From positions 12,387-76,386 of the IMG/VR virus record IMGVR_UViG_3300033143_005857: a stretch of 64,000 bases of DNA; one strand, given 5' to 3'. This document shows, in pieces, positions 24,584-64,000 of the stretch. A program made the translations under genes and the position numbers. The number at the start of each line of letters is the position of its first letter. The stretch's first letter is position 1. The DNA is from a virus. A model generated the notes under the pieces. The model was not told the origin of the DNA and made no database searches. It saw nothing but the letters and a program-made list of their open reading frames with translations.

Positions 24584-24772
24584 TTAAGTTCCCCAGTCCT
24601 CGTCAACTACAAAATCGCATTTTTGCTTGTTGTTTCGCAAATGATCTTTAGCAACTTCGTTGCATTTTTTATGCTTCCTATGGCATTTGTATTGAGAACT
24701 TCGAAAAATACAATTGTAGCAATTTTCCGATGTCCAATTACGTATCTTCTTCGTCATTTTCATCGTCCTCAT
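24584..24772 (-). CDS. small Cys-rich protein
   Basis: CxxC...C...C; start uncertain. Confidence 0.35.
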   Translation of the reverse strand: MRTMKMTKKIRNWTSENCYNCIFRSSQYKCHRKHKKCNEVAKDHLRNNKQKCDFVVDEDWGT

Positions 24773-26039
24773 CTTGTGAAATTAGGTCAATTAAAGATTC
24801 TACATTTAATTTGTTGTAAATTTCTTGGATTTTTGCAACTTTCTCAATATTAGATTCGTTTGTCTCAATAATTTTTTGCAGCTCTTTGGATTGATTGTAG
24901 ATGTAGGTTTCATAATCCTTAATCGCTGCGATATCGCCAGTAAATGCTCTGTTAATTTTGAGCATCTTTGAATATGGCTTCATAACACATTTATTAAAGT
25001 TAATATCAATAGAATCTTCGCCAGTTGCAGCAAGAACTATTTTTTCCCACAATCCTTCAAGTTGATCTCGCATATATCGATATTTTTTTGGCTTCATAAC
25101 ATACGGTTTTTTAATTCTGTTTATGTCCCAAATGCTTATATTTTCATCGATAACTTTTTCCGTATAATCACAAAATGGCTCAATTCCTACATTAACATAG
25201 AGATTGTCAAGTTCTAACCGATATTCTCCAAGTTGTGCAAGAGTCATTGCTAAACCAATATTTTTCATGTATTTCATTTGCTCTGCATTAACTCTTGTTT
25301 TTTCTTTGATTGTATCCCATAAGCTCGGATTGATTGAATCAAGCATATCAAAGTTGATACCAAAATCAAGTGTTTCATCAAACCATTGCTTGATATCTTG
25401 GTAAATACCAATTCCAGCAATGTCTAAATCATGGATAACACCAATCACAATGTTTGTTTTTCCATCTTCAATATTATCTCGGATTTCCATAATTGTTTCA
25501 ACAACTTCACACGCTGAAAAGCCTTGAGTAATGATAAGAACAATTTTCTCTTCCCATCCTCGCTTGTTCATTGCAGCAAGCCATTTTTTGCCGAGAGTTT
25601 CTTTTTCACAAATTGCAATCAATAACCCAGAATCAACATATTTTTCACGATTTTGTGGAACAATCATAATATCGTCACCAACACAGCCATAAGCAATGGC
25701 TCGTCCTTTAGATTCAATATTAAGAGATTTACGTAATATTCCCCAGTAGCTATTTTTGCTATCTATTTCGATTGCCTTGCTCACAATAGATTTCTTTTCG
25801 CAAAATGCACGAATTGATTTGAGCATAGTGTTGTATTGCTTGCTTGCATCTCCAGAGATGTCTAATTCGTCCGTTCCGAATTCTTTCTTATATTTAGAAA
25901 CGGAATTATACCATAACATACGTTGAGATATGCTATCCGAATGAGCTTGTAAATATTCAAACCCATGTTCGTATAACATGTCAAATCGTCGCTGAAGTTC
26001 CAAGCGAACGATACCAAGAAAATTTGATGCTTTACCCAT
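24738..26039 (-). CDS. Toprim-domain protein, Topo VI-A/Spo11/JetD-like
   Basis: ICEKE, QGF, HDLDIAGI.I, ELD motifs. Confidence 0.7.
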   Translation of the reverse strand: MGKASNFLGIVRLELQRRFDMLYEHGFEYLQAHSDSISQRMLWYNSVSKYKKEFGTDELDISGDASKQYNTMLKSIRAFCEKKSIVSKAIEIDSKNSYWGILRKSLNIESKGRAIAYGCVGDDIMIVPQNREKYVDSGLLIAICEKETLGKKWLAAMNKRGWEEKIVLIITQGFSACEVVETIMEIRDNIEDGKTNIVIGVIHDLDIAGIGIYQDIKQWFDETLDFGINFDMLDSINPSLWDTIKEKTRVNAEQMKYMKNIGLAMTLAQLGEYRLELDNLYVNVGIEPFCDYTEKVIDENISIWDINRIKKPYVMKPKKYRYMRDQLEGLWEKIVLAATGEDSIDINFNKCVMKPYSKMLKINRAFTGDIAAIKDYETYIYNQSKELQKIIETNESNIEKVAKIQEIYNKLNVESLIDLISQDEDDENDEEDT

Positions 26040-26119
26040 AATTTGTCACCAGCAGTGGTGTGATCGAAATATAGAACGCTTTTTATTTAAATATTGGTAG
26101 AAACCATGTATCAACTATA

Positions 26120-27865
26120 TTAAACAATTTTACAGTAAATAGGCTTTCTGCCTCGTGTTTTTGTATTAACCTTATATATTTTTATCATGTTATCTTTAAC
26201 AAGACGTTTGATAACTTCTGATACAACAGTATTCTGTCCTTTTATCTTTCTTATAATTTCAGTAATTGTATGATCTTTTTCTTCAAGTAGTGTTAAAATG
26301 TCTTCACGTATCCGATCTTCTTTGTCTTCTGTGACATATTCTGTTTCTCCACGTAATAATGACTCTAATTTGCCAATCGGCATACGATTAACATTTTTGA
26401 AAGGTAAAAGTAAATTTGTGAGTAAATAAATATAAGTTGGCTTATTTCGCTTTAATGCGATACGGATTCTATGAATTCCTTGAATTATGTTAGTTTCTCG
26501 CATGATATAATGTAAATCATCTTCATCATAGCCGAGAAGTATTGATTTTCTATGCAAATCATCCCTTCTTGGTTCTGGTGTTCCAAATATAACAACTACA
26601 TTAAACTTTTCATATTCGTTTGATCCTACAAGAGGATAATGATCTGTTGTAATATAGGAAGGATTAGAGTCTTTTATTTCTTCTTCGTATTTTTTACGGG
26701 AGAGAACAAGCACTGGTTCTTGGTGCTTATTGATAATAAGTTGAATTAAATTAATCAATCTTCGTCGTGTTTTAATATTTTTGTCCAACGTTCTCATAAC
26801 ATATTTTGCAGTGCTTATTTGATATATAGTAGATTTAATGTTGATCTCTTGCTCAATTGCTTGAATACTTCTCATAAACATCGACTGATAAAACTTAGGA
26901 GGTGTTGTAGCATCCAATATCATAACTTTGCATGGAAAGTCTAAAGCATCCAAATCGTATCGTGCAATATCAATATAGCTATGCTGCTCTCCAACAACAG
27001 TTTTAATGACGTTGTCAATGAACTCAAGGTGGTTTGGATCATACATTGGAAGATATTTTTTCCAGATTGCAGCAGCAGTTTCAAAGATAAATGTGACTAT
27101 ATTAGTAAAAATCTTTTTCTTTTGGAAATAATAAACAGCAAGTAAATGTTCATACTCTTCAGCAAAGTCTGCTAATGATTCTGCTGAACCATCAATTTTG
27201 AAAAATTGGTAAATTTGAGCATACAAATAAACATTATTTACAAACTTGTTTTGTAATGCAAATGCAAATTCATGTAAGAAATCAAACAGAAAATCTTTTT
27301 CTGGGCATTCTCTCATACGAGCAGCAAGATTAATTGTATTTACTATATGGCTATAATAAATTCGTTGTTGCTTGTAAATAGCGTCAATAAAGTATTCATC
27401 TATAACTACAACATCGACGTTGTTTTCTTCTACATACGAATTAACCAAACCTCCAAGATGGTGATGCACACCAATCCAAGACTGAGGTTCATGCCAGATT
27501 TCTATGATACGTTGATAATATTCACAAATACTCATATATTGGCATTCTGGGCAAAATTGCTTGATATTAATACCATACTTAATTAGTGGTTTGTATTCAT
27601 CGTTTCTACATAATCTGCGTCGTGATTCAATTTGTAGCAATCCAAATAATGCTTCATTTTTGTTTATTTGTTCGCTCGCAATAGTATGATTATTAACAAG
27701 ATAAATAAACAGAGAATCAGTATTATCAAGTTCCTCTGCAGTAATTGTAGTCTTTCCAGCACCAGCAAAATGATTTAAATGTAAGTTATAATCTGGTGGA
27801 TTTGGTGTATACAAGTAGTTTTTTACGGACTTTCGTAAAAATGCACGAATTTCATCAATATACAT
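26120..27865 (-). CDS. SF2-like helicase with Cys cluster and C-terminal winged helix
   Basis: GAGKTT, IDEY, DAT, QGIHRIR; C...CPEC...C; wHTH ending RGRK. Confidence 0.65.
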   Translation of the reverse strand: MYIDEIRAFLRKSVKNYLYTPNPPDYNLHLNHFAGAGKTTITAEELDNTDSLFIYLVNNHTIASEQINKNEALFGLLQIESRRRLCRNDEYKPLIKYGINIKQFCPECQYMSICEYYQRIIEIWHEPQSWIGVHHHLGGLVNSYVEENNVDVVVIDEYFIDAIYKQQRIYYSHIVNTINLAARMRECPEKDFLFDFLHEFAFALQNKFVNNVYLYAQIYQFFKIDGSAESLADFAEEYEHLLAVYYFQKKKIFTNIVTFIFETAAAIWKKYLPMYDPNHLEFIDNVIKTVVGEQHSYIDIARYDLDALDFPCKVMILDATTPPKFYQSMFMRSIQAIEQEINIKSTIYQISTAKYVMRTLDKNIKTRRRLINLIQLIINKHQEPVLVLSRKKYEEEIKDSNPSYITTDHYPLVGSNEYEKFNVVVIFGTPEPRRDDLHRKSILLGYDEDDLHYIMRETNIIQGIHRIRIALKRNKPTYIYLLTNLLLPFKNVNRMPIGKLESLLRGETEYVTEDKEDRIREDILTLLEEKDHTITEIIRKIKGQNTVVSEVIKRLVKDNMIKIYKVNTKTRGRKPIYCKIV

Positions 27866-27890
27866 AATAATTACCTAAAAAAATAAAGAA

Positions 27891-29999
27891 TTATTTAAAT
27901 TCTTTTTTGTTAATCATTATAAGATTTTTAACCACTCTTGTGCTTAATCTTAAGGCTCGTGCTACTTTAACTGGATCTCCATTCAATACATCACCAATTG
28001 AATTAAAACCAGCTTTGTATAGTAATTCTGCACGTTTCAAACCAATCTTTTTGAGTTTGCATAATTCAATCAATTCGGTGCGAAGAGTTCCAGCTTGGCA
28101 CATTAAGCTTAGGATTCCAAGAGAACTGCTAAGAGTTTTGTTGCTGCTGAAGATTACGCTTGCAGCATTAAACATACGGAAGCCATTTTCTTTGAGAAGC
28201 ATTTTATCACCAGTAGATAAGTATATTTTTTTGGTGATTTCGTATTTCTTAATAAGATCTTCGTTAAATGTTAAGAAATAGCATTTGAGAAGTTGTTTTT
28301 CAATTCGCCAATCAACTAAACGGATATATTCGTCGCATTCTGTCATTTCTGCATTTTGAATGTTGCAATTTGAAATTGATGCACACGTTGAACATGGTAA
28401 ATTGTTGCAATGTCGCTTCATTGGTGGAAATACTTCACCAAGATCGTGAGAAGCGTAATCCATGATTGTTTCGTCTTCTTTTCGAGCGGTCACAACATCG
28501 TAATATTCTGCTACTGTTCCAAATCGCACAAATAACTCTGTCAGATCTGTTGAATCAACGATATTGCATATTTGTCCTTTCCATGCAACAACAGTTTCTG
28601 GCATAACATACATAGCAACAGTTAAACGTCCGATTTTTGTAATTGCTAAGCCATATTCTGTTTTCTTAAGGAAGTCAAACATTGTAAGCCATTCTACTGC
28701 CTTATCTGCTTCTGCATCGCTAATTTCTGCATAACTACCAGCAGCAAGTTCCATGATATCCATTTTGTCGCTTGCTAATCCAGAAGCAATCCATTGTAAA
28801 ATCTTTTCGTGCAGTCTTGGTTTGAGTTTACTCTCAACAACAAGAGGATTTAACGCACGGTCTGTGATAACTTCTTCTAAGCGTTCTGGAACAAATATAA
28901 AGGCATAACCCATATCTGAAAGGTTTGGTCTGCCAGCACGTCCGATTGTTTGTTGAATTCGATTTGCTTCTAATGGTTCACTACCGTTAATGGCTGAATA
29001 TTGTTCAACATCAAAGAGAACACAGCAATCTGCTGGTAAATTAACACCAACAGCAAGAGTAGGAGTAGCACACACAACTTTGATAGTTCCATCACGGAAG
29101 GAGTCTTCAACATAATGTCGTTCTGCTTTGCTTAATCCAGCGTTGTGATAGCCGATACTATGCTCTTCAACTAATTCTTCTAACGTATGCCGTTTTCTGT
29201 CGTTTACCAAAGCATTTGCAACTTGGATTGTTCGAAGTCGAGATGTAGTGAAAATAATCCAATTTTTGTCTTTGTATTGTCTCATCAACGATCGAAGCAT
29301 TCTCATACGTAAATCAAAGTTTTTTTTGTGGTCTGGATAATCAGCCCAAGATACAGTAATTTCTTCGTATGTATTGATTTTAAGTTCAAGAGGAACTGGT
29401 CGTTCGCTTGGTTCTGCAAAAATTAGTTCTGATTCTAACCAGTCTGCAAAGTGGTGCGGATTACCAACAGTTGCACTTAAGAACATATATTTAAGTTCTG
29501 GATATGCAATACGTGTAGTGATTAAGTAGTTCTCCATACGATGTCCACGTGATGCATCGCCAATTGTGTGTGCTTCGTCTGTAATTATTAATCCAACGTC
29601 TTGCATAACAACTTCACGCTTTTTAGCAGAGTTCATAATAACGTCGAATTTTTCTGGAGTCATACACGCAATTCCCCACTCCTCTTCTTCGTATTCTGCC
29701 AACTTTTTGCGATGGTCACTATCATCAATAAGAGTAGGCATGATTTCTTGGAATTCACCAAATTGCTCTTCCGTTAATGCTTTTAGCAAGCCAATAAGAA
29801 TAGTTTTTTTCCCTTGCGTTTCCCACAAGTATTTAGCAGCCAGTTTCGCTGGTAATGTTTTTCCATAACCAGTTGGCAAAAAGAGTGCAACATTATTACC
29901 GTCTACAAAAGAGTTAATTGCTTCTAACTGTCTCTTTCGCATTTCGAACGGGAGCTTTTTCATGTGGCACAATTCTAAAATTTCTGCTTGATTCATCAT
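27891..29999 (-). CDS. hel308: Ski2/Hel308-like DExH helicase
   Basis: PTGYGKT, TPEKFD, DEAH, SAT, ATPTLAVGVNLPA, GRAGRP, C-terminal HhH. Confidence 0.88.
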   Translation of the reverse strand: MMNQAEILELCHMKKLPFEMRKRQLEAINSFVDGNNVALFLPTGYGKTLPAKLAAKYLWETQGKKTILIGLLKALTEEQFGEFQEIMPTLIDDSDHRKKLAEYEEEEWGIACMTPEKFDVIMNSAKKREVVMQDVGLIITDEAHTIGDASRGHRMENYLITTRIAYPELKYMFLSATVGNPHHFADWLESELIFAEPSERPVPLELKINTYEEITVSWADYPDHKKNFDLRMRMLRSLMRQYKDKNWIIFTTSRLRTIQVANALVNDRKRHTLEELVEEHSIGYHNAGLSKAERHYVEDSFRDGTIKVVCATPTLAVGVNLPADCCVLFDVEQYSAINGSEPLEANRIQQTIGRAGRPNLSDMGYAFIFVPERLEEVITDRALNPLVVESKLKPRLHEKILQWIASGLASDKMDIMELAAGSYAEISDAEADKAVEWLTMFDFLKKTEYGLAITKIGRLTVAMYVMPETVVAWKGQICNIVDSTDLTELFVRFGTVAEYYDVVTARKEDETIMDYASHDLGEVFPPMKRHCNNLPCSTCASISNCNIQNAEMTECDEYIRLVDWRIEKQLLKCYFLTFNEDLIKKYEITKKIYLSTGDKMLLKENGFRMFNAASVIFSSNKTLSSSLGILSLMCQAGTLRTELIELCKLKKIGLKRAELLYKAGFNSIGDVLNGDPVKVARALRLSTRVVKNLIMINKKEFK

Positions 30000-30012
30000 G
30001 TTTTTTTTCACC

Positions 30013-30034
30013 AATAGTGGTTTAAACCACTATT
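30013..30034. promoter_or_regulatory. 22-bp perfect palindrome (operator candidate)
   Basis: AATAGTGGTTTAAACCACTATT immediately upstream of the helicase RBS. Confidence 0.5.
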
Positions 30035-44050: not shown

Positions 44051-44123
44051 CGGGAAAAGAGGGCTTTGAACCCTCACCTTCTCAGTGCTAACCAAGACGT
44101 GCAACCAAATACACTATTTTCCC
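44051..44123 (-). tRNA. tRNA-like gene with atypical anticodon arm (identity undetermined)
   Basis: Acceptor GGGAAAA/TTTTCCC+G, D arm GTGT/GCAC with GG, T arm GAGGG-TTCAAAG-CCCTC; anticodon arm 18 nt instead of 17. Confidence 0.7.
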
Positions 44124-52268: not shown

Positions 52269-52345
52269 TTTCGTAAACGAATCGTGGGTTTCGTAAACGA
52301 TATAGCATTTCGTAATGTTTACAAATTACGTTTCGTAAGCGAAAT
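52269..52345. repeat. four TTTCGTAA direct repeats at a divergent promoter region
   Basis: Copies at 52269, 52289, 52308, 52331. Confidence 0.65.
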
Positions 52346-52408
52346 TTATACGCTTCGAAACAAAAATGAGTTGATATCTTGGGTTTGAAACACGAAACAG
52401 AAAGCCAA

Positions 52409-55109: not shown

Positions 55110-55284
55110 TTACAAGCACATAGATATCGGTTTATTAACCGATATGGCTAAGTCTGGCTATGGAGAAACGACAGAACAGAAGATACTATTTGAAAAGTTG
55201 CATAATAGGTTAAAACAAGATTGGCAGACCGAAAAAAAACCCGAAATCACCGCTGAGACAGTGATCTCGGGAAGGTTGGTATAA
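55096..55284 (+). CDS. hypothetical protein
   Basis: Short ORF coupled to the previous gene. Confidence 0.4.
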   Translation: MVGRDYKHIDIGLLTDMAKSGYGETTEQKILFEKLHNRLKQDWQTEKKPEITAETVISGRLV

Positions 55285-55462
55285 GTCGTTTTAGATTCTT
55301 TATTTTTTTGTTTTTGTTATACAATTTTACAATAGGAATTAGTCGGTTGATTTCCGCACTACATTCTTCCACCAAATAACTATTTGCAGAGTTATGGTGT
55401 CGATGTAGTATTAACAAATAAATCTCCCAAAAGGGAGAAAGCATGAGTTCTACATTGTCCAT
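55247..55462 (-). CDS. hypothetical protein
   Basis: 71-aa ORF. Confidence 0.4.
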   Translation of the reverse strand: MDNVELMLSPFWEIYLLILHRHHNSANSYLVEECSAEINRLIPIVKLYNKNKKIKNLKRLIPTFPRSLSQR

Positions 55463-55512
55463 TAGGGTTCACTTATTCTATAATTTAAATAAAAAAGGGC
55501 TAATAAATCTGC

Positions 55513-55770
55513 CTAATCAATAATACTGTTTATTATCTTAATGTTCGCACGTTTGAGCCCTAATTCATCAATAACAACGTCAATCATTTCTACAAAGCTA
55601 AAAGGCGATTGCTTAAGCCATCTTGTATAAACGTCGTCCATCTTCGCCTTAATAATGCAAACGTCCATATCCGTTTCAACAAATGTCTCTAAATAACCGT
55701 CGTTTTCGTCGTTTTCGTCTGGGTTATCTAAACCATATTTCGTGATAAACCGTAATTTTAATGTCGCCAT
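55513..55770 (-). CDS. hypothetical protein
   Basis: 85-aa ORF. Confidence 0.5.
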   Translation of the reverse strand: MATLKLRFITKYGLDNPDENDENDGYLETFVETDMDVCIIKAKMDDVYTRWLKQSPFSFVEMIDVVIDELGLKRANIKIINSIID

Positions 55771-55771
55771 G

Positions 55772-56041
55772 TTAATCAGCCGTTTTTATTTCTTCCATAC
55801 AACTCTTTAGGTTATGTAATGAAAGCCTAAATTTGTTGTGGATATCGTATGGAATCGGAGTGTTTTCCGTGCTTTTTACAAATAGTTCATACATCTTAAT
55901 CATCGTGGCTTTTCTATCTAAGCCAGTTCCGTCGCAAAATGCACATGGATAGTCGTCGTGCGTTCCTTCTTCTAATCCAGTGCCGTTGCAAGCAGAACAC
56001 TCAATTTTATGAGAGTCTTTGCTCATTTCTGTTTTCCACAT
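55772..56041 (-). CDS. DnaJ-type zinc-finger small protein (cassette ORF)
   Basis: CSACNGTG...CAFCDGTG; ATG abuts repeat copy 1. Confidence 0.65.
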   Translation of the reverse strand: MWKTEMSKDSHKIECSACNGTGLEEGTHDDYPCAFCDGTGLDRKATMIKMYELFVKSTENTPIPYDIHNKFRLSLHNLKSCMEEIKTAD

Positions 56042-56128
56042 TGATTTAACACCTTCTAAGCATTACGTGCTTAGTTTACGTGATTGCACCGAAATGGTGC
56101 AACCATACCGTAAAAAAGGAAAAAAGTA

Positions 56129-56329
56129 TTACTGTTTTCCATAAATTTTGATGTTTTCTTGTTGATCTTTTTCGTAATAAATTGAAAACATTAAACTTGT
56201 TTGAAATGCCTTCATTTTGTCAGTCATAATAAGTCCGCTGTGCCAAGCAGCAGCAATCAAATTTCCAACGTGTTCTTTGATTTTGTCGTATGCGTCTGCT
56301 TTCTCTTTATCTGTTGTTAATCGTTGCAT
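56129..56329 (-). CDS. cassette ORF, hypothetical
   Basis: Fills the space between repeat copies 1 and 2. Confidence 0.7.
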   Translation of the reverse strand: MQRLTTDKEKADAYDKIKEHVGNLIAAAWHSGLIMTDKMKAFQTSLMFSIYYEKDQQENIKIYGKQ

Positions 56330-56419
56330 TTTTTACACCTTTTTAGCAGCATAACGTGCTGCATTTACGTCCAAATCAGTATCTCTGGTTTGAATACCGT
56401 AAAAAAGTTAAAAAAGTAG

Positions 56420-56662
56420 TTATTTGTTAAGTTTGTCTTCTATTTTGGTCATTGTATCAATTGGAAGTTCGCTAACATGCAGCAAACCAATCAATCGGTA
56501 AAAGAAACGTTGCATATTAGTAATTCGTGCAGTAATCTCTGCAACTTTCATCCCGTTAGGAGAGTTCATATAACATTCGGTCAGTGAACACAAATCTGTC
56601 ACGTCTTCTTGTGTTAGGCTTATTTTCACAGTTTTATCATGTGTTAAATGTTTGAATTTCAT
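56420..56662 (-). CDS. cassette ORF, hypothetical
   Basis: Start corrected to MKFKH after the repeat RBS. Confidence 0.7.
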   Translation of the reverse strand: MKFKHLTHDKTVKISLTQEDVTDLCSLTECYMNSPNGMKVAEITARITNMQRFFYRLIGLLHVSELPIDTMTKIEDKLNK

Positions 56663-56750
56663 AAATTTACACCAGTTTGGTGGCTGTCGTGCCACCATTT
56701 ACGTGATTGCACCGAAATGGTGCAACCATACCGTAAAAAGTAAAAAAGTA

Positions 56751-56957
56751 TTACTTTGTTAAAAATAACCCGTCCAATAAACCAACCAAATACCAATATG
56801 CTTCATTTGTATAAAGCGTTTTAGTAATTGCTGATCCAACCCTAAACTGCCACATTTTTTTATCTCCAGCGGTCCAAACGTCTTGCGTGTATACGTTTTT
56901 AAAACCTTTATCGATAAATTTTTGTAATAAATTTTGTATCATTTTTGTCGTTGTCAT
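56751..56957 (-). CDS. cassette ORF, hypothetical
   Basis: Own GGTGA RBS; third gene of a 3-gene cassette. Confidence 0.65.
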   Translation of the reverse strand: MTTTKMIQNLLQKFIDKGFKNVYTQDVWTAGDKKMWQFRVGSAITKTLYTNEAYWYLVGLLDGLFLTK

Positions 56958-56970
56958 GTTTTTTCACCAA

Positions 56971-57195
56971 CTATCTCTTTTCTAAAAAAAACTGTGTTAA
57001 TGCTACCGTAATTCCAAGCGTATAACCACGCTCAAATAACTTTTCAGCATAGTGATAAGCCCACTTTAGTGTCGAAGCATTGTAAAATGATGCTTCACAG
57101 CTTAAATTTGTGCCAACAACAATATATTTTTGCTGTTTGGTTGGTTTCTGAATCATAAACACCTTTTCGTTAATTTGCTTATCAGCCATGCTCAT
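56971..57195 (-). CDS. cassette ORF, hypothetical
   Basis: ATGA overlap with the upstream gene. Confidence 0.6.
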   Translation of the reverse strand: MSMADKQINEKVFMIQKPTKQQKYIVVGTNLSCEASFYNASTLKWAYHYAEKLFERGYTLGITVALTQFFLEKR

Positions 57196-57560
57196 AACCT
57201 TTTAAGCACTGATTGGTATTTTTCAACAAGTCCATTGTAAACCGCTGTTGCTTTTCTGTAATCTGCGTCTGCTTCCCTAATCAAAGCCTTGTAATATTTT
57301 TTAAAGCAGCTTTTACAGTAGCTTTCACCACCATCTACCACTTCAACATCGTCAATATCAACAATTGTTTTACAATCAAAGCATACAGCCCAATCGTCTG
57401 AATTTTTGTGCGATGGGCATACTTCAAAGCACTTTTCGTCTTTGCATTCGTATAGTTCAACGTCGTCGTCTGTTGGCAAACCGAGTTTTTTACGTGTATT
57501 AATACACGCTCGAAATCTGGTCTCTTCGCCACGTTTGTCATGTTCTTCCCATGTTCCCAT
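57192..57560 (-). CDS. cassette ORF, zinc-finger protein
   Basis: CFDC...YCKSC. Confidence 0.7.
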   Translation of the reverse strand: MGTWEEHDKRGEETRFRACINTRKKLGLPTDDDVELYECKDEKCFEVCPSHKNSDDWAVCFDCKTIVDIDDVEVVDGGESYCKSCFKKYYKALIREADADYRKATAVYNGLVEKYQSVLKRL

Positions 57561-57649
57561 AATTTTTCACCTATTTACTGGCGTCGTCGCAGCCAGTTTT
57601 ACGTGATGATTTGGAATTCAAACCATCATACCGTAAAAAGTAAAAAAAG

Positions 57650-58066
57650 TTAGCCATACATAACTTCGCCAAATAAGGCTAACTGCAAAAAGCAATCAGC
57701 GGTTTCAGCATCTGCATTATCACCAATTAAATTAAGTGCTTGGCGATGCATCCGCTTGCCGTCCTTAGTCCGCATTTTTAGTAAACGTTCCACACCACGT
57801 CGCACAGCAGCATAGTCAAGCGTGTATTCTGCACCTTCGCTGTCGTTTGGGTCTTGGTCTGTAATAATTAAACTTCCACCATTTAGCACAATATCGTGCA
57901 TAAATCGGTCGCTTTCGTGCTTTTTATTTTTACGCACTATGCTATACCAGTAATTACTGCCACCTTCCAAAGCAGAAGCAATTAAACTGCTAACTTTGTC
58001 GTATCCAATAACAATAGGCTGCATTATATCAAACACAAATGCTTCGGTTTTTTCCATTGTTCCCAT
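57650..58066 (-). CDS. cassette ORF, phage-type hypothetical protein
   Basis: ALEGGSNYW...DAETAD.FLQ.ALFGEV.YG. Confidence 0.7.
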   Translation of the reverse strand: MGTMEKTEAFVFDIMQPIVIGYDKVSSLIASALEGGSNYWYSIVRKNKKHESDRFMHDIVLNGGSLIITDQDPNDSEGAEYTLDYAAVRRGVERLLKMRTKDGKRMHRQALNLIGDNADAETADCFLQLALFGEVMYG

Positions 58067-58152
58067 GATTTAACACCTTCTAAGCATTACGTGCTTAGTT
58101 TACGTGATTGCACCGAAATGGTGCAACCATACCGTAAAAAAGGAAAAAAAAG

Positions 58153-58356
58153 TTATTTGCTTAAAAAATCATTAAGCAAAGCGTTATCGATCTTTTTATA
58201 CAAAAAGGTCTGTGCTGGGTCGTGCTGATTTCCATATTGCTCCAACATTGCAACCGCTTCTTCTGGGCTGTCCACGTATATCATGTGAACTCGCTTGCGA
58301 ACTCGGTTTTTAAACTTTAATAAATAAAGTTTTAATTTAACATCGTTTTTTCCCAT
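58153..58356 (-). CDS. cassette ORF, hypothetical
   Basis: Start corrected to MGKND. Confidence 0.65.
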   Translation of the reverse strand: MGKNDVKLKLYLLKFKNRVRKRVHMIYVDSPEEAVAMLEQYGNQHDPAQTFLYKKIDNALLNDFLSK

Positions 58357-58443
58357 AGTTTTACACCTTTTACAAGCCATACGTGCTTGTTTTACGTAAT
58401 TGTAGCGATATGCTGCAATTATACCGTAAAAAGTAAAAAAGTA

Positions 58444-58815
58444 TTACAAATTGTCGTTGTTTAGGTCTCTAACTGCTGTTTCTATCCAATTAATTGCTTG
58501 TTCTACAGTATCTTTCAAGTCTTCGCCAGATTTAACACCAATTTTAAGCAATACAACGGTTTCTTCTAATATTTTGGTCACGTGTATTTGTTTGGCTTTA
58601 TCGTCTGTTTTTGGCTGCAAAATCGTTAAGCATTCCAAGTCTTCACTACAATCCCAGCAAGATATTTGGTAATCCCACTCGCTCGCTGCAAATATTGGCG
58701 TCATTGCTGATTTTTCCATTTTTTTATCCTTAACACACAGTTTGCAGTAAACTGCACCATTTTCGTCAGTATAACCAACGATATCGGCTGCATTCCATAA
58801 GTTGCTTTTTCCCAT
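58444..58815 (-). CDS. cassette ORF, zinc-finger protein
   Basis: Start corrected to MGKSN; YCKLC...PIF...EWD...CWDC. Confidence 0.7.
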   Translation of the reverse strand: MGKSNLWNAADIVGYTDENGAVYCKLCVKDKKMEKSAMTPIFAASEWDYQISCWDCSEDLECLTILQPKTDDKAKQIHVTKILEETVVLLKIGVKSGEDLKDTVEQAINWIETAVRDLNNDNL

Positions 58816-58906
58816 GTTTGTTTTACACCTTTTTGGTGGCTGTCGTGCCACCATTTACGTGCTATAAGCGATTTGCTTGTAGCATACCGTAAAAAGTAAA
58901 AAAGTA

Positions 58907-59110
58907 TTACTGTGTTGCGAAAAATGTATGCAACTGGTTTAATAGGTCAAATGCAAAGCGAAGGGCAAACATCTTAGCGATATAAGCCATTAACTCCCTT
59001 AGTTCTCCAGTAAATACTGGTCTTGGGTTGCTATCGGCAATAAACAACTGATATCTTGTTGATTCACCAAAGTAAACGGTGATATTGTTGGTTTCTGCTA
59101 TTTTTTCCAT
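58907..59110 (-). CDS. cassette ORF, hypothetical
   Basis: Bounded by copies 7 and 8. Confidence 0.65.
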   Translation of the reverse strand: MEKIAETNNITVYFGESTRYQLFIADSNPRPVFTGELRELMAYIAKMFALRFAFDLLNQLHTFFATQ

Positions 59111-59197
59111 ATTTTATTACACCTTTTAGCAGCCACCGTGCTGCTATTTACGTAATTGCAGCGATATGCTGTAATTATACCGTAAAAAGTAAAAAAG

Positions 59198-59455
59198 TTA
59201 AACCATATTAATTTTAAGGCTGTATACGTTGTCTTCGTCGAAGTTATTAAGGTTTTCCGCTTCTTGCTCCATAAAATCCCATAATAAAGCAACGATTTTA
59301 GGCACTTCGGTCCACTGAAACTCGCAATCCAGCGTTAAAGTAATGTTCTTAGCAAATGTTAGCCCTAAGATACGCTTTCGGGCAAACTCGACGTTGGTAT
59401 ACCAAAAACTTTTGTCTTTGATACAAAATCCGATAAATTGGGTTAAGTTATCCAT
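59198..59455 (-). CDS. cassette ORF, hypothetical
   Basis: Start corrected to MDNLT. Confidence 0.65.
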   Translation of the reverse strand: MDNLTQFIGFCIKDKSFWYTNVEFARKRILGLTFAKNITLTLDCEFQWTEVPKIVALLWDFMEQEAENLNNFDEDNVYSLKINMV

Positions 59456-59545
59456 AGTTTTACACCTTTTTGGTGGCTGTCGTGCCACCATTTACGTGAT
59501 TGCACCGAAATGGTGCAACCATACCGTAAAAGTGTTAAAAAAGTA

Positions 59546-60079
59546 TTACTTTGTTGTGTTTTTTAACCACGTATTAACGTCTGTTAGGCTTTCCAGTATA
59601 AATTTAAGCGTTTTACTATGGTTTGCATGATTATACTTACGCTCTAAGCTTTTTTTAACAGTAGCAACCATGTCGTTTGTTATTTCTAATATTTCTACTA
59701 TTTCTGGCTTATTTATTGCTACAAAATTAAAACTTAGGTTGTCCCACTCTTTTCTGTAGTTTAAATTAACCAGTTTAGCATTTGCAAACAAATTGGTAAA
59801 TGCTACATAGTTTTCAAACGTATAACCGTCGTAATAATCCACGTCGATACAAACCCTTAACTCGTTTAGTGTTGGGTTAAAATCTATTTGCGATAACCCG
59901 CACATAAACCACTGTGTTTTATACAACTGTGCCAATTCGCCAAAATGCTGCATAATTTGGTCTTTATATTGCAGTAAATTGTGTCCGCTGTTGTAAACGT
60001 TTTTGCCGTCAACTTTCTCGCAAATTGCAGTGCTTCTTTGCAAGAAAGCATTAAACTCTGTTGTGTCTTGGTTTTCCAT
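59546..60079 (-). CDS. cassette ORF, hypothetical
   Basis: Bounded by copies 9 and 10. Confidence 0.7.
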   Translation of the reverse strand: MENQDTTEFNAFLQRSTAICEKVDGKNVYNSGHNLLQYKDQIMQHFGELAQLYKTQWFMCGLSQIDFNPTLNELRVCIDVDYYDGYTFENYVAFTNLFANAKLVNLNYRKEWDNLSFNFVAINKPEIVEILEITNDMVATVKKSLERKYNHANHSKTLKFILESLTDVNTWLKNTTK

Positions 60080-60165
60080 GTTATTTTACACCTTTTACAG
60101 CCATACGTGGCTGTATTACGTGCTAACAGCGTTGTGCTGCAAGCATACCGTAATAAAGTAAAAAA

Positions 60166-60477
60166 TTAATGGAATTTAACCATTACAGTAATGTCTTCGC
60201 CAATATAGCCACGATTTAGGCTAAATGTTAGGTTGTAAACTTCCGTGTCGCCATAGTGGGCTTTGATTTTGTTGGTTTCTGCTTCTTTAAGCAGCGGTCC
60301 GTGTTGGTGGTCACGTATGCTAAAATTGCGTAAAACAGCGTAAACCATAATATTGTTTGCACTTCTTAGGCTAAATTCATAGGAATGCACAGTAGCAAGC
60401 CCAGTTCCATGTTTCTCAACGAGTTTTTTAACTTCGTCGCAGCAAAATGTTTTAAACTCTTTTGTGTATATGTCCAT
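60166..60477 (-). CDS. cassette ORF, hypothetical
   Basis: Start corrected to MDIYT. Confidence 0.65.
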   Translation of the reverse strand: MDIYTKEFKTFCCDEVKKLVEKHGTGLATVHSYEFSLRSANNIMVYAVLRNFSIRDHQHGPLLKEAETNKIKAHYGDTEVYNLTFSLNRGYIGEDITVMVKFH

Positions 60478-60565
60478 GTTTGTTTGCACCTTGTTGCAGC
60501 ATACGTGCTGCATTTACGTGCTATAAGCGATTTGCTTGTAGCATACCGTAAAAGGTAAAAAAGTA

Positions 60566-60895
60566 TTAAATTAACCGCTTAACAAATAGCGGTGATATTT
60601 TGTAAATTATAAGTTTTCCAATTGATTCTTGCCTTAAATTAGCACATTTGTCGGTAAAGTTAAATCTGTAAAACTGTGTTGCTGCTTTACCAGTTAAAAG
60701 CAATGTATCGCCAGTATCCAACATTGTGTCGGCTGTTGGGCAATATGCCATTAAATCTTCCACATAAATTAAAATGCCAGTTGTTTTTAACGTCATTAAG
60801 CGTTGTGCTGCAAGCAAATGTAATGTTGCTGCACCAAATAGTTGTTCTTGGTCTAATCGCTTAATAACATCCTTTAATGTTGCTGTTTTTTGCAT
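60566..60895 (-). CDS. cassette ORF, hypothetical
   Basis: Bounded by copies 11 and 12. Confidence 0.65.
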   Translation of the reverse strand: MQKTATLKDVIKRLDQEQLFGAATLHLLAAQRLMTLKTTGILIYVEDLMAYCPTADTMLDTGDTLLLTGKAATQFYRFNFTDKCANLRQESIGKLIIYKISPLFVKRLI

Positions 60896-60985
60896 AATTT
60901 ACACCTTTTAGCAGCCAACGTGCTGCTATTTACGTGCTATAACCGATTTGGCTATAACATACCGTAAAAAGTGGTTAAAAAAGCA

Positions 60986-61150
60986 TTAACTATACAGAGC
61001 AATTGCTTGCTGCTGTGCGGTTTGAACCGCTTGGATTGGCTTGGTTGTAGGCTGTTGTTTACCAATTGCTTTAAACATGCTAACATAATGTATAACAGTG
61101 TGTTTAATTGGTAAATAAATGTTAAAATTAACTGTAATTGGTTTTTCCAT
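60986..61150 (-). CDS. cassette ORF, 54 aa (not in ORF track)
   Basis: MEKPITVNFNIYLPIKHTVIHYVSMFKAIGKQQPTTKPIQAVQTAQQQAIALYS; fills the space between copies 12 and 13. Confidence 0.6.
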   Translation of the reverse strand: MEKPITVNFNIYLPIKHTVIHYVSMFKAIGKQQPTTKPIQAVQTAQQQAIALYS

Positions 61151-61243
61151 GTTTGTTTACACCTTTTAGCAGCATTACGTGCTGCTATTTACGTATTGGG
61201 TGCTAAATGCAGCCCAATATACCGTAAAAAGTTAAAAAAGTTA

Positions 61244-61582
61244 TTAATTGCTGTTAAATTTGCCGTTGTAATAATAACGGGTTGTTGTTTTTGTGCCTTC
61301 TGCTAAGCCCTTTAAGTATTTTGGGTATAACCAACTGTTGCACGCACCAGCGGCACGTGCTTGGTAGCCAATAAGCACACCGTTTACATAAGTAAACCGT
61401 GCAGCAAAGTGTTGGGCTGCAATAAAACGTTCAAAATGCACCATGCTTGCAACACGTGCCTTTTCCGTGTGTTGTAGTTGTGCAGCAACGTAAATAAGCG
61501 TGCTCCGCAATTCTGCAACGTCGTTGTATTTTGTGGCATTTATAATTAATGCCGCTAAATCGCTGTTATTTAATATTTCCAT
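61244..61582 (-). CDS. cassette ORF, hypothetical
   Basis: Bounded by copies 13 and 14. Confidence 0.65.
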   Translation of the reverse strand: MEILNNSDLAALIINATKYNDVAELRSTLIYVAAQLQHTEKARVASMVHFERFIAAQHFAARFTYVNGVLIGYQARAAGACNSWLYPKYLKGLAEGTKTTTRYYYNGKFNSN

Positions 61583-61661
61583 GTTATTTTACACCTTTTA
61601 CAAGCCATACGTGCTTGTTTACGTGGTTGCAGCGTTGTGCTGCACCCATACCGTAAAAGTG

Positions 61662-61949
61662 TTAAAAAAATTGCTGTATAATTAGGTGGGCTGCTTGCTC
61701 ATAGTTATCCACCATTTCGTTGGCTGCACTGCTTAATGCAACAGTTTGGCTAATAAACGGTATTAGCGGGTGTTTTACAACGTGTTTATACAATGCAGCC
61801 AAGCAATAACCAACTTTGCCGCTTGTATAAAACTTTGCCAGCCTATTGTGCTGGTATTTGGGGTCGTCCGTGCATTCTAAGCAGTGGTTTACATAATTGC
61901 TTAGTAAACTGTTTGCTGCATTAATTTGGGTTATATTTAGTTTTTCCAT
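61662..61949 (-). CDS. cassette ORF, hypothetical
   Basis: Stop codon lies in the T-tract of copy 14. Confidence 0.65.
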   Translation of the reverse strand: MEKLNITQINAANSLLSNYVNHCLECTDDPKYQHNRLAKFYTSGKVGYCLAALYKHVVKHPLIPFISQTVALSSAANEMVDNYEQAAHLIIQQFF

Positions 61950-62027
61950 GTTATTTTACACCTTTTAGCAGCCAACGTGCTGCATTTACGTGCTAAACGC
62001 TAAATGCGGTTAGCATACCGTAAAAAG

Positions 62028-62369
62028 TTAAAAAATAATGTATTTTAAGCCACTAAAAGCCATGCTACACGTTGGTGTGCTAAGCGTTTGCGTGTTAAAG
62101 TTAATAGTAATTGCCACAAACGGCTTGCGTGCTGGGTAGTTAAGCACATCCACCACACTGTGAAAACCAGCACGTAAATGCTGTTTTTGGCTGCCAGTTA
62201 ATAGGTTTGCAGTAAACTGCTTTGCTTTAAGCACTGTGGTGGGTGTATATTGTAATTGCCGTAATTGGTTTACCACGTGCTTGTATAAGGCTTGTGCGTT
62301 GTTATGCACAAATGCACGCACAACACCGCTGTTGTTATAAATTTTTAATATTACTGGTTGTTTTTCCAT
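62028..62369 (-). CDS. cassette ORF, hypothetical (1 Asp, 1 Glu)
   Basis: Bounded by copies 15 and 16. Confidence 0.65.
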   Translation of the reverse strand: MEKQPVILKIYNNSGVVRAFVHNNAQALYKHVVNQLRQLQYTPTTVLKAKQFTANLLTGSQKQHLRAGFHSVVDVLNYPARKPFVAITINFNTQTLSTPTCSMAFSGLKYIIF

Positions 62370-62460
62370 GTTTGTTTACACCTTTTAGCAGCATTACGTG
62401 CTGCTATTTACGTATTGGGTGCTAAATGCAGCCCAATATACCGTAAAAGTGTTAAAAAAG

Positions 62461-62835
62461 TTAAACCATTTTAATTATTTGCCCAATAAATTGGTTAATT
62501 TGGTAATACAGCATGCTGCTTGCTGGGCTGTATAAGTGCATACTGTATAAATGCTGCACCAGTTTGCACGCTTGCCATACAGCAATAAGTTGCTGCTTGC
62601 TAAGCATAATTTTAGGGCTTGGTTTAAACGGGCTAATAAATGGTGTTAATTGCTGTAAAACGCTGTTAATTACCGCTATTTGCCCTACCGCTGTAAATAT
62701 TTGTTTGCCAACTAAATGGCTAATTAAACCGTTATTAACGTGGTGGAAACTATTATTGCCTTGTTTTACTGCTGTTTGCAACACGTTAATTGCACCAATT
62801 AAGTGCATTTTAGGTATTTGTAATGTATATTGCAT
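62461..62835 (-). CDS. cassette ORF, hypothetical (no Asp, Glu or Arg)
   Basis: Bounded by copies 16 and 17. Confidence 0.65.
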   Translation of the reverse strand: MQYTLQIPKMHLIGAINVLQTAVKQGNNSFHHVNNGLISHLVGKQIFTAVGQIAVINSVLQQLTPFISPFKPSPKIMLSKQQLIAVWQACKLVQHLYSMHLYSPASSMLYYQINQFIGQIIKMV

Positions 62836-63018
62836 GTTATTTTACACCTTTATGCTGCAGCGTGCAGCATTTACGTGCTAAACGCTAAATGCGGTTAGCA
62901 TACCGTAAATAAAAAAGTAAACGTTGTTTGCTGTATTTGCACACAGCAGCCCAGTAGGGCTGTATTACGTGGTTGCAGCGTTGTGCTGCACCCATACCGT
63001 AAAATAGTGTTAAAAAAG

Positions 63019-63318
63019 TTATAATACAGCAAATAACTGCTGTTTAAACTGTGCAAGCGTGCTGCACCATTTAGTGCCTACATAATTGCCTTTAATGCCA
63101 ATGCCACCACTATACAAATGTATGGCTGTTTGCCCAGCCTTACGGTGTTGGCTGCCATACTTTTTGTTATTGTGGTAAAAATCCACGCAAATGTTTGGGT
63201 TTAAACGCACCATTAAAGCAGTGCCGTTGCAGCGTGCAATATGCTGCACCTTAAGCGTTTTTACAACAAAAATATAAATTGTTTTTTGCTGTTGGGTTAG
63301 GTTTGTTAGTTTTACCAT
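63019..63318 (-). CDS. cassette ORF, hypothetical (1 Asp, no Glu)
   Basis: Bounded by copies 18 and 19. Confidence 0.65.
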   Translation of the reverse strand: MVKLTNLTQQQKTIYIFVVKTLKVQHIARCNGTALMVRLNPNICVDFYHNNKKYGSQHRKAGQTAIHLYSGGIGIKGNYVGTKWCSTLAQFKQQLFAVL

Positions 63319-63408
63319 GTTATTTTACACCTTTTACAAGCCATACGTGCTTGTTTACGTGGTTGCAGCGTTGTGCTGCACCCATACCGTAAAAGTGTTA
63401 AAAAAGGG

Positions 63409-63798
63409 TTAAAAATAGGTTGCTACATTAATTTTAACTGCTTGCGTTATTTGCTTGGCTGTGCTGCCTTGTGCCAATGCTAAGCAGTTAATAAACAGTT
63501 GTGGCAAATCTGCAACCACATTAAGCATACTGGTTGCTGGGTTGCTGGTTTGTGCTGCCATACTGTTGGCAAACTGCATAATTTGGTTTAATACAAATAC
63601 ATGCTGTGGTGGGGTTAATTTGGCTATTAATTGCACTGCCAAATTATAAATAATACTGCTGGTTTGTGGTGCTGGGCTTTTAGGGCTGCCACTATTTACG
63701 TTGCACCAGTTAATAAAGCTGTTTAACTGCACCCAATTGGTTTGTTTACCAACCCAATAAGCCAGTTTTATGTTATTTACTGTAATTGTTGTTTGCAT
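63409..63798 (-). CDS. cassette ORF, hypothetical (1 Asp, no Glu)
   Basis: Bounded by copies 19 and 20. Confidence 0.65.
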   Translation of the reverse strand: MQTTITVNNIKLAYWVGKQTNWVQLNSFINWCNVNSGSPKSPAPQTSSIIYNLAVQLIAKLTPPQHVFVLNQIMQFANSMAAQTSNPATSMLNVVADLPQLFINCLALAQGSTAKQITQAVKINVATYF

Positions 63799-64000
63799 TT
63801 TTTACACCTTTAACAGCCATACGTGGCTGTTGCACGTGGCTAAAACGCTGGGTTTTAACCATACCGCACGGTGTAATGCCGTAATAGCTGCCATACATGT
63901 TAAGTGCCTTTAACTATGCCGCACGGCTTAAATTACAAGCCGTTTGCTACTGCTAAATTGCCATGCTAAGTTTATTTATACAGCCGTTGCATGCAAATTA

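Follow-up and report, generated by a model that had tools for sequence, protein, structure and literature searches.

Intergenic repeats that carry expression signals are known from bacterial and archaeal viruses. The promoter-early stem-loop (PeSL) cassettes of T4-type phages were defined in Arbiol 2010 (PMC2839356) and were also treated in Comeau 2014 (PMC4122927). They carry sigma-70 −35 and −10 boxes and a stem-loop that serves as the terminator. In the case of HGTV-1, a conserved motif preceding ORFs was reported (Sencilo et al. 2013) and, in a passage of PMC3950731, was likened to PeSLs. In the HGTV-1 sequence (KC292026, 128–143.6 kb checked), about 20 units of 103–185 nt were found at the genome end, and each unit consists of a T run/TATA-like box, a hairpin, AT boxes and an ATG before small minus-strand ORFs. 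For HF2, the intergenic repeats have been shown by experiment to be promoters, and a conserved motif surrounds their start site (PMC8707807; Russ, Pfeiffer and Dyall-Smith 2021).

The stretch of DNA analysed here (the window, 64,000 nt) belongs to the genome record of an uncultured virus (76,386 bp), which is bounded by direct terminal repeats (DTRs). An array of 20 units of about 95 bases, all co-oriented on the minus (coding) strand, occupies window positions 56039–63886 and begins directly inside the right terminal repeat. Each unit was read in the order stop codon, T6 + T4–5 tract, TTTACG-GTA, hairpin 2 (10-bp stem, 5-nt loop), CGTAAA, hairpin 1 (CGT in the loop), AAAAGGTG and ATG. The features, in window coordinates, were as follows.

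63887–64000, no strand: right copy of the 114-bp direct terminal repeat, identical to genome positions 1–114
63796–63886, minus strand: unit 1, without T tract and without TTTAC/GTAAA, both hairpins kept; 62 bits
63316–63409, minus strand: unit 2, hairpin-2 allele A and hairpin-1 allele b
62927–63019, minus strand: unit 3, "empty", with T tract and hairpin 2 (allele A), hairpin 1 atypical; 42 bits
62833–62925, minus strand: unit 4, from alignment and covariance model
62367–62463, minus strand: unit 5, 26-nt hairpin 2 with a 1-nt bulge
61947–62040, minus strand: unit 6, from alignment and covariance model
61580–61673, minus strand: unit 7, nearly the same as unit 2 across about 105 nt, flanking ORFs unrelated
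61148–61244, minus strand: unit 8, 96% identity with unit 5 over 99 nt
60893–60984, minus strand: unit 9, from alignment and covariance model
60475–60568, minus strand: unit 10, from alignment and covariance model
60077–60170, minus strand: unit 11, from alignment and covariance model
59453–59546, minus strand: unit 12, hairpin-2 allele H and hairpin-1 allele h
59108–59202, minus strand: unit 13, from alignment and covariance model
58813–58909, minus strand: unit 14, alleles F and h, reassortant relative to units 10 and 12
58354–58446, minus strand: unit 15, from alignment and covariance model
58064–58154, minus strand: unit 16, alleles H and j, 100% identity with unit 20 over 84 nt
57558–57653, minus strand: unit 17, hairpin 2 perfectly paired, three ORFs behind it
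56660–56753, minus strand: unit 18, from alignment and covariance model
56327–56419, minus strand: unit 19, from alignment and covariance model
56039–56130, minus strand: unit 20, followed by three ORFs (55247–56041)
55247–63798, minus strand: 23 small ORFs (54–177 aa), mutually unrelated

A covariance model of the unit was built from 19 of the 20 copies, and a search of the genome with this model recovered exactly these 20 units and nothing else (42–98 bits). The stop codons abut the T tract, the ATG lies 6–10 nt after GGTG, and the repeat runs on through the SD into the first codons of the downstream gene. Moreover, the GTA bulge and the flanking ACG/CGT were invariant across all 19 aligned units. 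A single ORF fills each interval, except at 62927–63019, where the unit has no SD, ATG or ORF, and between 57653 and 56753, where three ORFs occur. The three ORFs past unit 20 converge on a plus-strand operon ending at 55284. An earlier note had described this layout, namely 20 co-oriented repeats, stops at the T tract, an ATG shortly after AAGGTG, and one ORF of 54–177 aa in every interval but two, and the layout was confirmed, with the three ORFs beyond the last unit as an addition. A search of Rfam covariance models gave 0 matches at E ≤ 1 over 55500–64000 on both strands. Reading the repeat on the minus strand places the T tract before the hairpins, which corrects the earlier note.

In both hairpins, pairing rather than sequence is kept, through 12 and 15 variants, respectively. 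Hairpin 2 is 25 nt long (26 nt in two copies) and lies between TTTACG-GTA and CGTAAA. Its 12 distinct alleles had 95.7% of cells paired, with both sides changed in 11 of the 16 pairs; none of 500 shuffles reached the observed level, and slid controls paired at only 25–39%. A mismatch, a wobble or a 1-nt bulge was present in 11 of the 12 alleles, at stem positions varying from 2 to 8. For hairpin 1, 15 distinct segments in at least seven stem families were found, and every variant folded to one hairpin of 5–8 bp (z −2.9 to −7.3, mean −5.2), with CGT usually contained in the loop. The geometry of hairpin 2, its diverging but complementary arms with usually a single mismatch, and the parallel covariation of hairpin 1 around a CGT loop had all been proposed beforehand from the letters; these proposals held.

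The modules of the unit are also exchanged among units. Hairpin-2 allele H is found together with alleles h and j of hairpin 1, allele F with g and h, and allele C with c and e, while hairpin-1 allele b occurs with hairpin-2 alleles A and J; T-tract types and SD spacers were likewise re-paired. Units 2 kb apart were 95–100% identical over 84–105 nt, yet their ORFs were unrelated. Within this one genome, modules thus re-pair at several conserved cores, as in homologous exchange. Of the shuffling suggested earlier, reassortment of hairpin modules was found.

The comparison with HGTV-1 showed that the "undescribed element" of the earlier note has a precedent, because that virus holds a closely analogous array already likened to PeSLs (PMC3950731). 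Both viruses are archaeal myoviruses with about 20 units before same-strand small ORFs of unknown function that are transcribed inward. In HGTV-1, a T run directly after the stop is followed by GGTAT, an inverted repeat and the ATG, and the inverted-repeat motif precedes most ORFs of one arm; here, the 20 units cover the terminal 8 kb. However, the single clear hairpin of HGTV-1 is largely conserved in sequence (CTCCTCG..CGAGGAG), and its units contain three AT-rich boxes that resemble TATA but lack an SD, with spacing of the leaderless type. The present units have two hairpins with freely covarying stems, a 3-nt bulge that never varies and an SD, but no clear TATA. As the covariance model of the unit gave no match in HGTV-1, the two arrays are analogues and not the same sequence family.

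Similarly to PeSLs, each unit is an intergenic segment that joins two ORFans, from the stop of the first through the SD and ATG of the second, combines a termination signal, a stem-loop and expression signals in a hyperplastic orphan region, and bears signs of recombination between repeats. Unlike PeSLs, the units occur in a virus of an archaeal host and have the T tract ahead of the hairpins, and sigma-70 sites are at or below chance. Moreover, mini-circles and strain-to-strain shuffling are known for PeSLs, whereas here reassortment was seen within one genome. HF2, too, is an archaeal myovirus; its genome measures about 76 kb and has terminal repeats and repeated intergenic sequences (class I/II), and the PolB of the present virus is closest to the haloferacalesvirus (HF2) group (26%). 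However, HF2 has only 9 repeats (58 and 29 bp), which head long operons rather than single genes and have no covarying hairpins. Core proteins of the virus have relatives at about 50% identity, and in the distant relatives G001–G003 no such array was found. In kind, the array belongs with the regulatory cassettes of T4-type phages and HGTV-1, of which it is a more elaborate form, and it is not an integron.

The reading we prefer, and consider reasonably probable, is that each unit serves an archaeal tailed virus as a composite regulatory cassette at a gene boundary, PeSL/HGTV-1-like and without a dedicated recombinase. The archaeal nature of the virus, claimed earlier, agrees with its archaeal-type replication genes, and the units do punctuate small orphans at the genome terminus. 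The gene-end T tract, structured hairpins and RBS that had been said to be packaged together are all present in the unit. Since archaeal RNA polymerase terminates at T runs, the double oligo-T tract after the stop would end transcription of the upstream gene. Among the sense-strand runs of six or more T in the array, 22 of 24 fall within units; each of the 19 units located behind a gene has such a run, and the first unit, which no gene precedes, has none. T-run strings also lie behind the late operons of the virus. The segment TTTACGGTAT – hairpin 2 – ACGTAAA – hairpin 1 would serve the next gene as promoter region and structured leader, restarting and/or shaping its expression; in this segment, hairpin 2 may be a filler between a TTTAC-type box and the start point, and hairpin 1 a stem-loop near the 5' end, immediately before the SD. 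Translation would then be initiated through AAAAGGTG and an ATG 6–10 nt further on. SD-like GGTG/GGTGA also stands ahead of other genes of the virus, sometimes with a hairpin just upstream (e.g., the helicase gene).

Where transcription starts is a guess, as the unit contains no canonical BRE/TATA at a suitable distance. The only TATA-like candidates in the unit are T6AA(C) and TTTACGGTAT, neither of which matches the late motif AAAATTTACATATATT of the virus; TTTAC is common to the units and this motif, which relatives at about 52% identity have conserved. Should the TATA be formed by the T6 tract or by TTTACGGTAT, the unit's own promoter would not transcribe hairpin 2 in full, and the strong covariation of hairpin 2 would then call for a DNA-level role or read-through RNA. 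Bacterial signals were not enriched in the array: sigma-70-like sites numbered 20 against 24.4 expected, none consistently placed in units, and a scan for bacterial terminators was at or below chance. N4 hairpin promoters are read by a virion single-subunit RNA polymerase and have 5–7 bp and a 3-nt loop, in contrast to 10 bp and 5 nt here. The N4-type RNA polymerase (PF00940) had no match in the genome, as in the control genomes, which gave none either, and the virus has no ORF of more than 924 aa.

For gene turnover, the invariant cores of the cassette would offer many crossover points for homologous recombination, so that genes could drop out, be acquired and be joined to other hairpin modules, with no dedicated site-specific recombinase taking part. 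The virus encodes general recombination proteins (a Sak4-like annealing protein, a PD-(D/E)XK nuclease and ERCC4). The first unit, which keeps both hairpins with neither T tract nor TTTAC, counts against the cassette model.

That unit also bears on an unlikely alternative, in which the units are RNA punctuation of a polycistronic early transcript from a terminal-repeat promoter and the T tracts only attenuate. In the RNA, each unit would form a three-way junction whose arms are the helix between the U tract/anti-SD and the SD, the long hairpin 2 with its bulge, and hairpin 1. This junction would serve as a processing or stability site and, for translational coupling, would keep the SD closed until it is opened by the ribosome that completes the upstream ORF. 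Although unit 1 has no U tract, it has a perfect 7-nt anti-SD, an upstream TTACACC complementary to GGTGTAA of the SD, and pairing of its outer stem is preserved via one G–C swap and two sense-strand G.U pairs. A TATAAATA box inside the right DTR, approximately 150 nt upstream of the first cassette ATG, also fits such a transcript, but 19 serial double T tracts should halt most archaeal transcription. MFE folds gave the three-way junction in 9 of 10 units (z −1.9 to −5.4), with stop codons within or adjoining the 5' strand of the closing helix; however, that helix had no unit-specific covariation (own versus swapped partners, permutation p = 0.18), and U-run/A-run pairing is expected from low complexity alone. 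Sense-strand G.U pairs outnumbered A.C mismatches by 8 to 4, a strand bias that is not significant. The RNase III sites of T7 are, likewise, irregular long hairpins that separate successive early genes at the first-entering genome end, but they belong to an RNA proven to be polycistronic, and the host enzyme that cuts them is known. To our knowledge, most archaea have no RNase III. No processing enzyme or cleavage motif was identified for the units, and, as the stem defects lie at variable positions, there is no bulge-helix-bulge motif. It is more improbable still that the units are an operator array, with TTTACG, CGTAAA and the hairpin-1-loop ACGT as half-sites of the palindrome TTTACGTAAA. 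In that case, a dimeric DNA-binding protein encoded by the virus would bind the half-sites and turn every early cassette off (or on) at once, and the hairpins would bring half-sites together or be secondary. The five copies of TTTACGTAAA in the genome are all intergenic, where only 7.5% of the non-array genome is intergenic; four form two pairs 22 bp apart adjoining late promoters, and CGTAAACG-type sites are clustered upstream of the gene at 52409. The invariance of the bulge and its flanks in 19 of 19 aligned units suits half-sites as well, but the free-sequence covariation of the 10-bp inner stem and of hairpin 1 is left unexplained, the half-sites are missing from the first unit, and no regulator was found, the small replication-module proteins having no DNA-binding Pfam match. 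The operator reading is compatible with the regulatory cassette and not exclusive of it.

Integron attC sites have the consensus core sites RYYYAAC ... GTTRRRY. The array shares with them tandem co-oriented short ORFs split by imperfect hairpins, structure conserved over sequence, and a conserved stem base with unpaired bases. However, the invariant stem base here is TTTACG ... CGTAAA on the coding strand, unlike the inverse core/core sites, and there is no IntI or attI; the extrahelical bases of attC are fixed, whereas the defects here occur at variable positions in either arm. The tyrosine recombinase family PF00589 had no match at E ≤ 1 in the entire 76,386-bp record, although 14 of 14 control genomes matched, and neither a serine recombinase, a Y1 HUH transposase (PF01797) nor a reverse transcriptase was found in the terminal-repeat-bounded genome. 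The search beyond 64 kb that the earlier note had proposed is covered by the full record, and its term "integron-like" is not supported by these results and by the stem base. An integron was rejected, having no recombinase, a non-attC core, and a repeat that carries the SD and the start of the next gene, and is also disfavoured by module reassortment at several conserved cores. A REP/RAYT or IS200-type element is not supported, as no match to its Y1 HUH partner was found. We hold it very improbable that hairpin 2 is an attC-/HUH-like site in ssDNA, cut and joined by an unrecognised viral or host recombinase so that cassettes are excised and captured. The layout of conserved base, unpaired bases and variable paired centre, the one empty and the multi-gene cassettes, the orphan cargo, and the occurrence of integrons in Archaea (PMC9668308) and phages (PMC9892861) would suit it; yet the core is unlike attC R''/R', the repeat extends through the SD and first codons, no Rfam family matches, and modules re-pair at two to three conserved cores at the least, not at one crossover point. 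Equally slight is the chance that hairpin 2 is the structure-specific site of a recombinase from the orphan genes or the host, in a capture platform evolved independently of integrons. If true, it would be a genuine cassette-capture platform of non-integron origin in an archaeal virus. The finding does not amount to a new type of mobile element.

The cargo of the cassettes consists of orphan genes. A family match was obtained for one cassette ORF only (phrog_2355, function unknown), and two cassette proteins had no homologue among 5.8 and 1.8 billion sequences. The orphan genes of the terminal block are presumably early genes. The four ORFs nearest the terminus contain 0–2 Asp/Glu each.

Relative to the known systems, the strongly covarying double hairpin is new, as are the outer-stem arms identical to the intergenic-only palindrome TTTACGTAAA and a GA/TC-free gradient. 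The array is among the clearest cases so far of an archaeal virus ordering its terminal orphans as uniform one-gene units. As pairing is kept over 12 and 15 variants in such units, they are a good test bed for how early transcription is punctuated and timed in archaeal viruses, whether stem-loops at archaeal promoters act in RNA or DNA, and whether such repeats promote the turnover of genes in the way of PeSLs in T4-type phages. In the compositional gradient at the array, GA/TC dinucleotides disappear towards the terminus, and this ties the units to whatever selective or mutational process shapes that genome end.

The array was located in a virus genome of 76,386 bp (an IMG/VR virus record) that carries a 114-bp direct terminal repeat; the window corresponds to genome bases 12387–76386. 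The virus is tailed, encoding baseplate J and tail sheath proteins, and its replication module is archaeal-type. PolB best matched those of HF1/HSTV-type haloarchaeal myoviruses (26% identity), and a eukaryotic/archaeal-type primase large subunit, an RFC-like clamp loader, ERCC4, and a Hel308-like helicase were also encoded. On the minus strand at window 44051–44123, ARAGORN called a tRNA-like gene, anticodon undetermined, which directly follows the polB ORF and overlaps its end. The array starts directly where the right terminal repeat ends on its inner side, extends inward for 8.6 kb, and converges at its inner end on a plus-strand operon. It contained 23 ORFs with no mutual relatedness, one of which matched phrog_2355 (function unknown). 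When two of the array proteins were subjected to an exhaustive homologue search, none was found, unlike the core proteins of the virus, which had relatives at ~50% identity. The description of the cassette ORFs as unrelated orphans was borne out.

Twenty copies of a unit of ~95 nt each were identified on the minus strand of the window between 56039 and 63886, and one of them (62927–63019) was empty, with no ORF. The unit comprises the following elements, listed 5′ to 3′ on the minus strand.

Element 1: stop codon of the preceding ORF
Element 2: T6–8, 1–5 other bases, T3–6
Element 3: ACGGTA, placing GTA directly after TTTACG
Element 4: hairpin 2, a 10-bp stem with a 5-nt loop (25 nt; 26 nt in 2 copies)
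Element 5: CGTAAA, pairing with TTTACG and leaving GTA as a bulge
Element 6: hairpin 1, a 5–8 bp stem, usually with CGT within the loop
Element 7: AAAAGGTG, a 6–10 nt spacer, and ATG

Invariant positions were found at ACGGTAT, which runs from the last bases of the 5′ arm of the outer stem, through the GTA bulge, to the opening base of hairpin 2, as well as at the ACGT after hairpin 2 and at GGTG. In the case of hairpin 1, one C was invariant, inside a nearly invariant CACG. A covariance model derived from 19 of the copies recovered the 20 sites with 42–98 bits, and it gave no further match in the window, in the 12.4 kb of genome outside it, or in the relatives examined. The co-oriented repeats and the geometry of hairpin 2, both reported in an earlier note, were confirmed. 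An Rfam search of the array returned no family match.

Covariation, which had been proposed as a check on the hairpins, was strong in hairpin 2. Twelve distinct alleles were found, and in a MAFFT alignment, whose copies are paralogues of a single genome and hence non-independent, standard pairing was observed in 95.7% of cells and 11 of 16 base pairs were changed in both partners. Of 500 column shuffles, none reached any of five measures, and pairing was only 25–39% when the 3′ partner was slid by 1–3 columns as a control. Even so, shared descent cannot account for 12 alleles whose arms are very different. A stem defect (mismatch, wobble, or one-base bulge) was present in 11 of the 12 alleles, at positions 2 to 8 of either arm, and these variable positions look like mutation–selection balance and not like a feature fixed for recognition. 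The 15 distinct segments of hairpin 1 formed at least seven stem families, and every segment folded as a single hairpin, with z-scores of −2.9 to −7.3 relative to shuffles.

The T tracts were concentrated in the units: the array has 24 T6+ runs on the sense strand, and 22 of these lay inside units. Because such a run was present in all 19 units preceded by a gene and absent from the first unit, which is preceded by none, the T tract is tied to where the upstream gene ends. Archaeal RNA polymerase terminates at oligo-T, and the tracts would fit terminators of this type. T-run depletion in coding sequence (30 sense T6+ versus 172 A6+ runs) was rejected as support for termination, being explained by base composition alone. 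If each gene is terminated individually, transcription must also be restarted by each unit. A canonical BRE/TATA was not found within the units, and scans for bacterial-type promoters and terminators were at or below chance; the T6AA(C) tract and TTTACGGTAT remain as candidate promoter elements. The usual archaeal box-to-start spacing is ~26 nt. With TTTACGGTAT as the promoter box, we infer, and only infer, that the transcription start would fall around the point where hairpin 2 ends, in the vicinity of the invariant ACGT, so that hairpin 1 and the SD would form the leader. TTTACGGTAT shares TTTAC with AAAATTTACATATATT, a late-promoter-like motif that precedes five structural/late operons, 46–68 nt before the ATG, and is identical in L106 and L107, metagenome relatives whose proteins share only ~52% identity. 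Besides the array, a short hairpin just before or including the GGTGA site was observed at other minus-strand genes (AGTGGTTTAAACCACT..GGTGA and CACCACTGCTGGTGA); therefore, SD-adjacent leader hairpins may be a general habit of the virus.

Genome 7570, 14870, 17950, 29915, and 45840 (e.g., window 2480, 5560, 17530, and 33450): late motif AAAATTTACATATATT
Window 27866–27960, minus strand: leader hairpin upstream of the helicase gene 27891–30014
Window 26040–26120, minus strand: leader hairpin upstream of the gene 24738–26039

Similar composites have been described in other viruses. PeSLs of T4-type phages are promoter/stem-loop/terminator composites that run from the stop codon of an ORFan to the next SD and ATG, and they recombine (PMC2839356, PMC4122927). 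For halovirus HGTV-1, a conserved motif that combines a TATA-like box with an inverted repeat and precedes most ORFs in one arm has been reported and likened to PeSLs (PMC3950731). The intergenic repeats of HF2 are proven promoters (PMC8707807). In the HGTV-1 record at 128–143.6 kb, we found ~20 small minus-strand ORFs at the genome end, each after a 103–185 nt unit containing a T run/TATA-like box, GGTAT, a conserved hairpin, and further AT boxes, which is the same layout as in the present array. HGTV-1 and the present virus have very different GC contents and are distant in other respects. CTTTTTA, GGTAT, and a hairpin carrying GCACG close to its loop occurred in the same order in the present units and in HGTV-1 (L116:34000–49856, corresponding to KC292026 128–143.6 kb); these shared strings may reflect chance or a common functional constraint. 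The present array differs from the known systems in its two hairpins, whose stems vary freely yet remain paired, its invariant 3-nt bulge, its clear SD, an outer stem built from half-sites of an intergenic palindrome, and its position along a gradient in which GA/TC dinucleotides are lost. The best explanation, which we consider more likely than not, is that the unit is a PeSL-like regulatory cassette at gene boundaries, reshuffled through homology. The package of terminator, structured site, and RBS before orphan genes proposed in the earlier note was retained, whereas its integron-like mechanism and its novelty as a kind of element were not, the latter because PeSLs and the HGTV-1 array are known analogues.

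The units may alternatively act as RNA punctuation of a polycistronic transcript, which we regard as rather unlikely. When whole units were folded as RNA, the predicted structure was a three-way junction with the U tract paired to AAAAGGUG, and the first unit carries a perfect anti-SD, TTACACC, in place of the U tract. Unit-specific covariation of this closing helix was not found when own and swapped flanks were compared (p = 0.18); the predicted U-tract/SD helix is therefore unproven and is treated as a possibility. The hairpins had 8 sense-strand G·U pairs versus 4 A·C mismatches, a difference that was not significant and too small in number to separate RNA from DNA. An array of operators for a regulator is less probable still. 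A 10-bp palindrome, TTTACGTAAA (often CGTTTACGTAAACG), has TTTACG and CGTAAA as its ends and is present in five further genome copies, all intergenic; four of these form two pairs, 22 bp apart, adjoining late promoters.

Genome 2482, 7508, 7530, 49521, and 49543 (the last two are window 37135 and 37157): TTTACGTAAA palindrome
Window 52270–52400: TTTACGTAAA-related sites

Judged from this placement, TTTACGTAAA is probably the operator of some regulator, and since the outer-stem arms are the ends of this intergenic-only palindrome, a regulator common to these sites and the units is plausible. A Pfam search of ten small replication-module proteins found no DNA-binding domain. Structure-specific recombination at the hairpins was considered very improbable. 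Integrons occur in Archaea (PMC9668308) and phages (PMC9892861), but their defining parts are missing from the array, and the search beyond the 64 kb, as proposed in the earlier note, found no tyrosine recombinase, serine recombinase, Y1 HUH enzyme, or reverse transcriptase in the whole genome. Hairpin 2 alleles (capitals) and hairpin 1 alleles (small letters) were paired in mixtures, namely, H with either h or j, F with g or h, C with c or e, and b with A or J, and T-tract types and SD spacers were likewise re-paired among units. Units 2 kb apart were 95–100% identical over 84–105 nt with unrelated flanking ORFs. Therefore, these allele mixtures and near-identical distant units, together with the empty unit, show that exchange has taken place inside units at more than one conserved core, which argues against an integron-like mechanism. 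Such a pattern would be expected of homologous recombination or gene conversion, and the virus encodes annealing and nuclease proteins suited to homologous recombination, as in the favored cassette reading.

Relatives carrying the array were sought in several collections. An exact-pattern scan of IMG/VR (TTTACGGTAT-N23–27-ACGTAA) matched 104 contigs, each with just one hit, as expected by chance, and revealed no array, and IMG/VR searches with the RFC-like neighbour gene and with a capsid-module protein alignment found no relatives. A scan of genome contigs for close relatives gave nothing, and three distant IMG/VR relatives examined whole (27% identity in one protein) contained no dispersed repeat array. 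A metagenome scan yielded L106 and L107 (~52% identity), which cover the structural module only, and protein searches found longer relatives on contigs of 68,635 and 24,593 bp.

The observed/expected ratio of GA/TC decreased from 0.93 at 56.1 kb to 0.33 at 60.6 kb and 0.02 at 62.6 kb, and was 0 in genome bases 1–500. GA and TC were nearly missing (0–0.15) from window 61100–64000 and genome 1–2000; the array and the left ~2 kb constitute one GA/TC-free block of ~5 kb spanning the terminal repeat. In the purged zone, every unit core and every hairpin allele was GA/TC-free, and the proteins of the four terminus-proximal ORFs contain 0–2 acidic residues (Asp/Glu). Restriction avoidance of the first-entering end and a TC-specific mutational process are candidate causes. 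The ~2 kb adjoining the left terminal repeat (genome 1–2035) was also observed to be nearly ORF-free and G/T-rich, with short repeated motifs.
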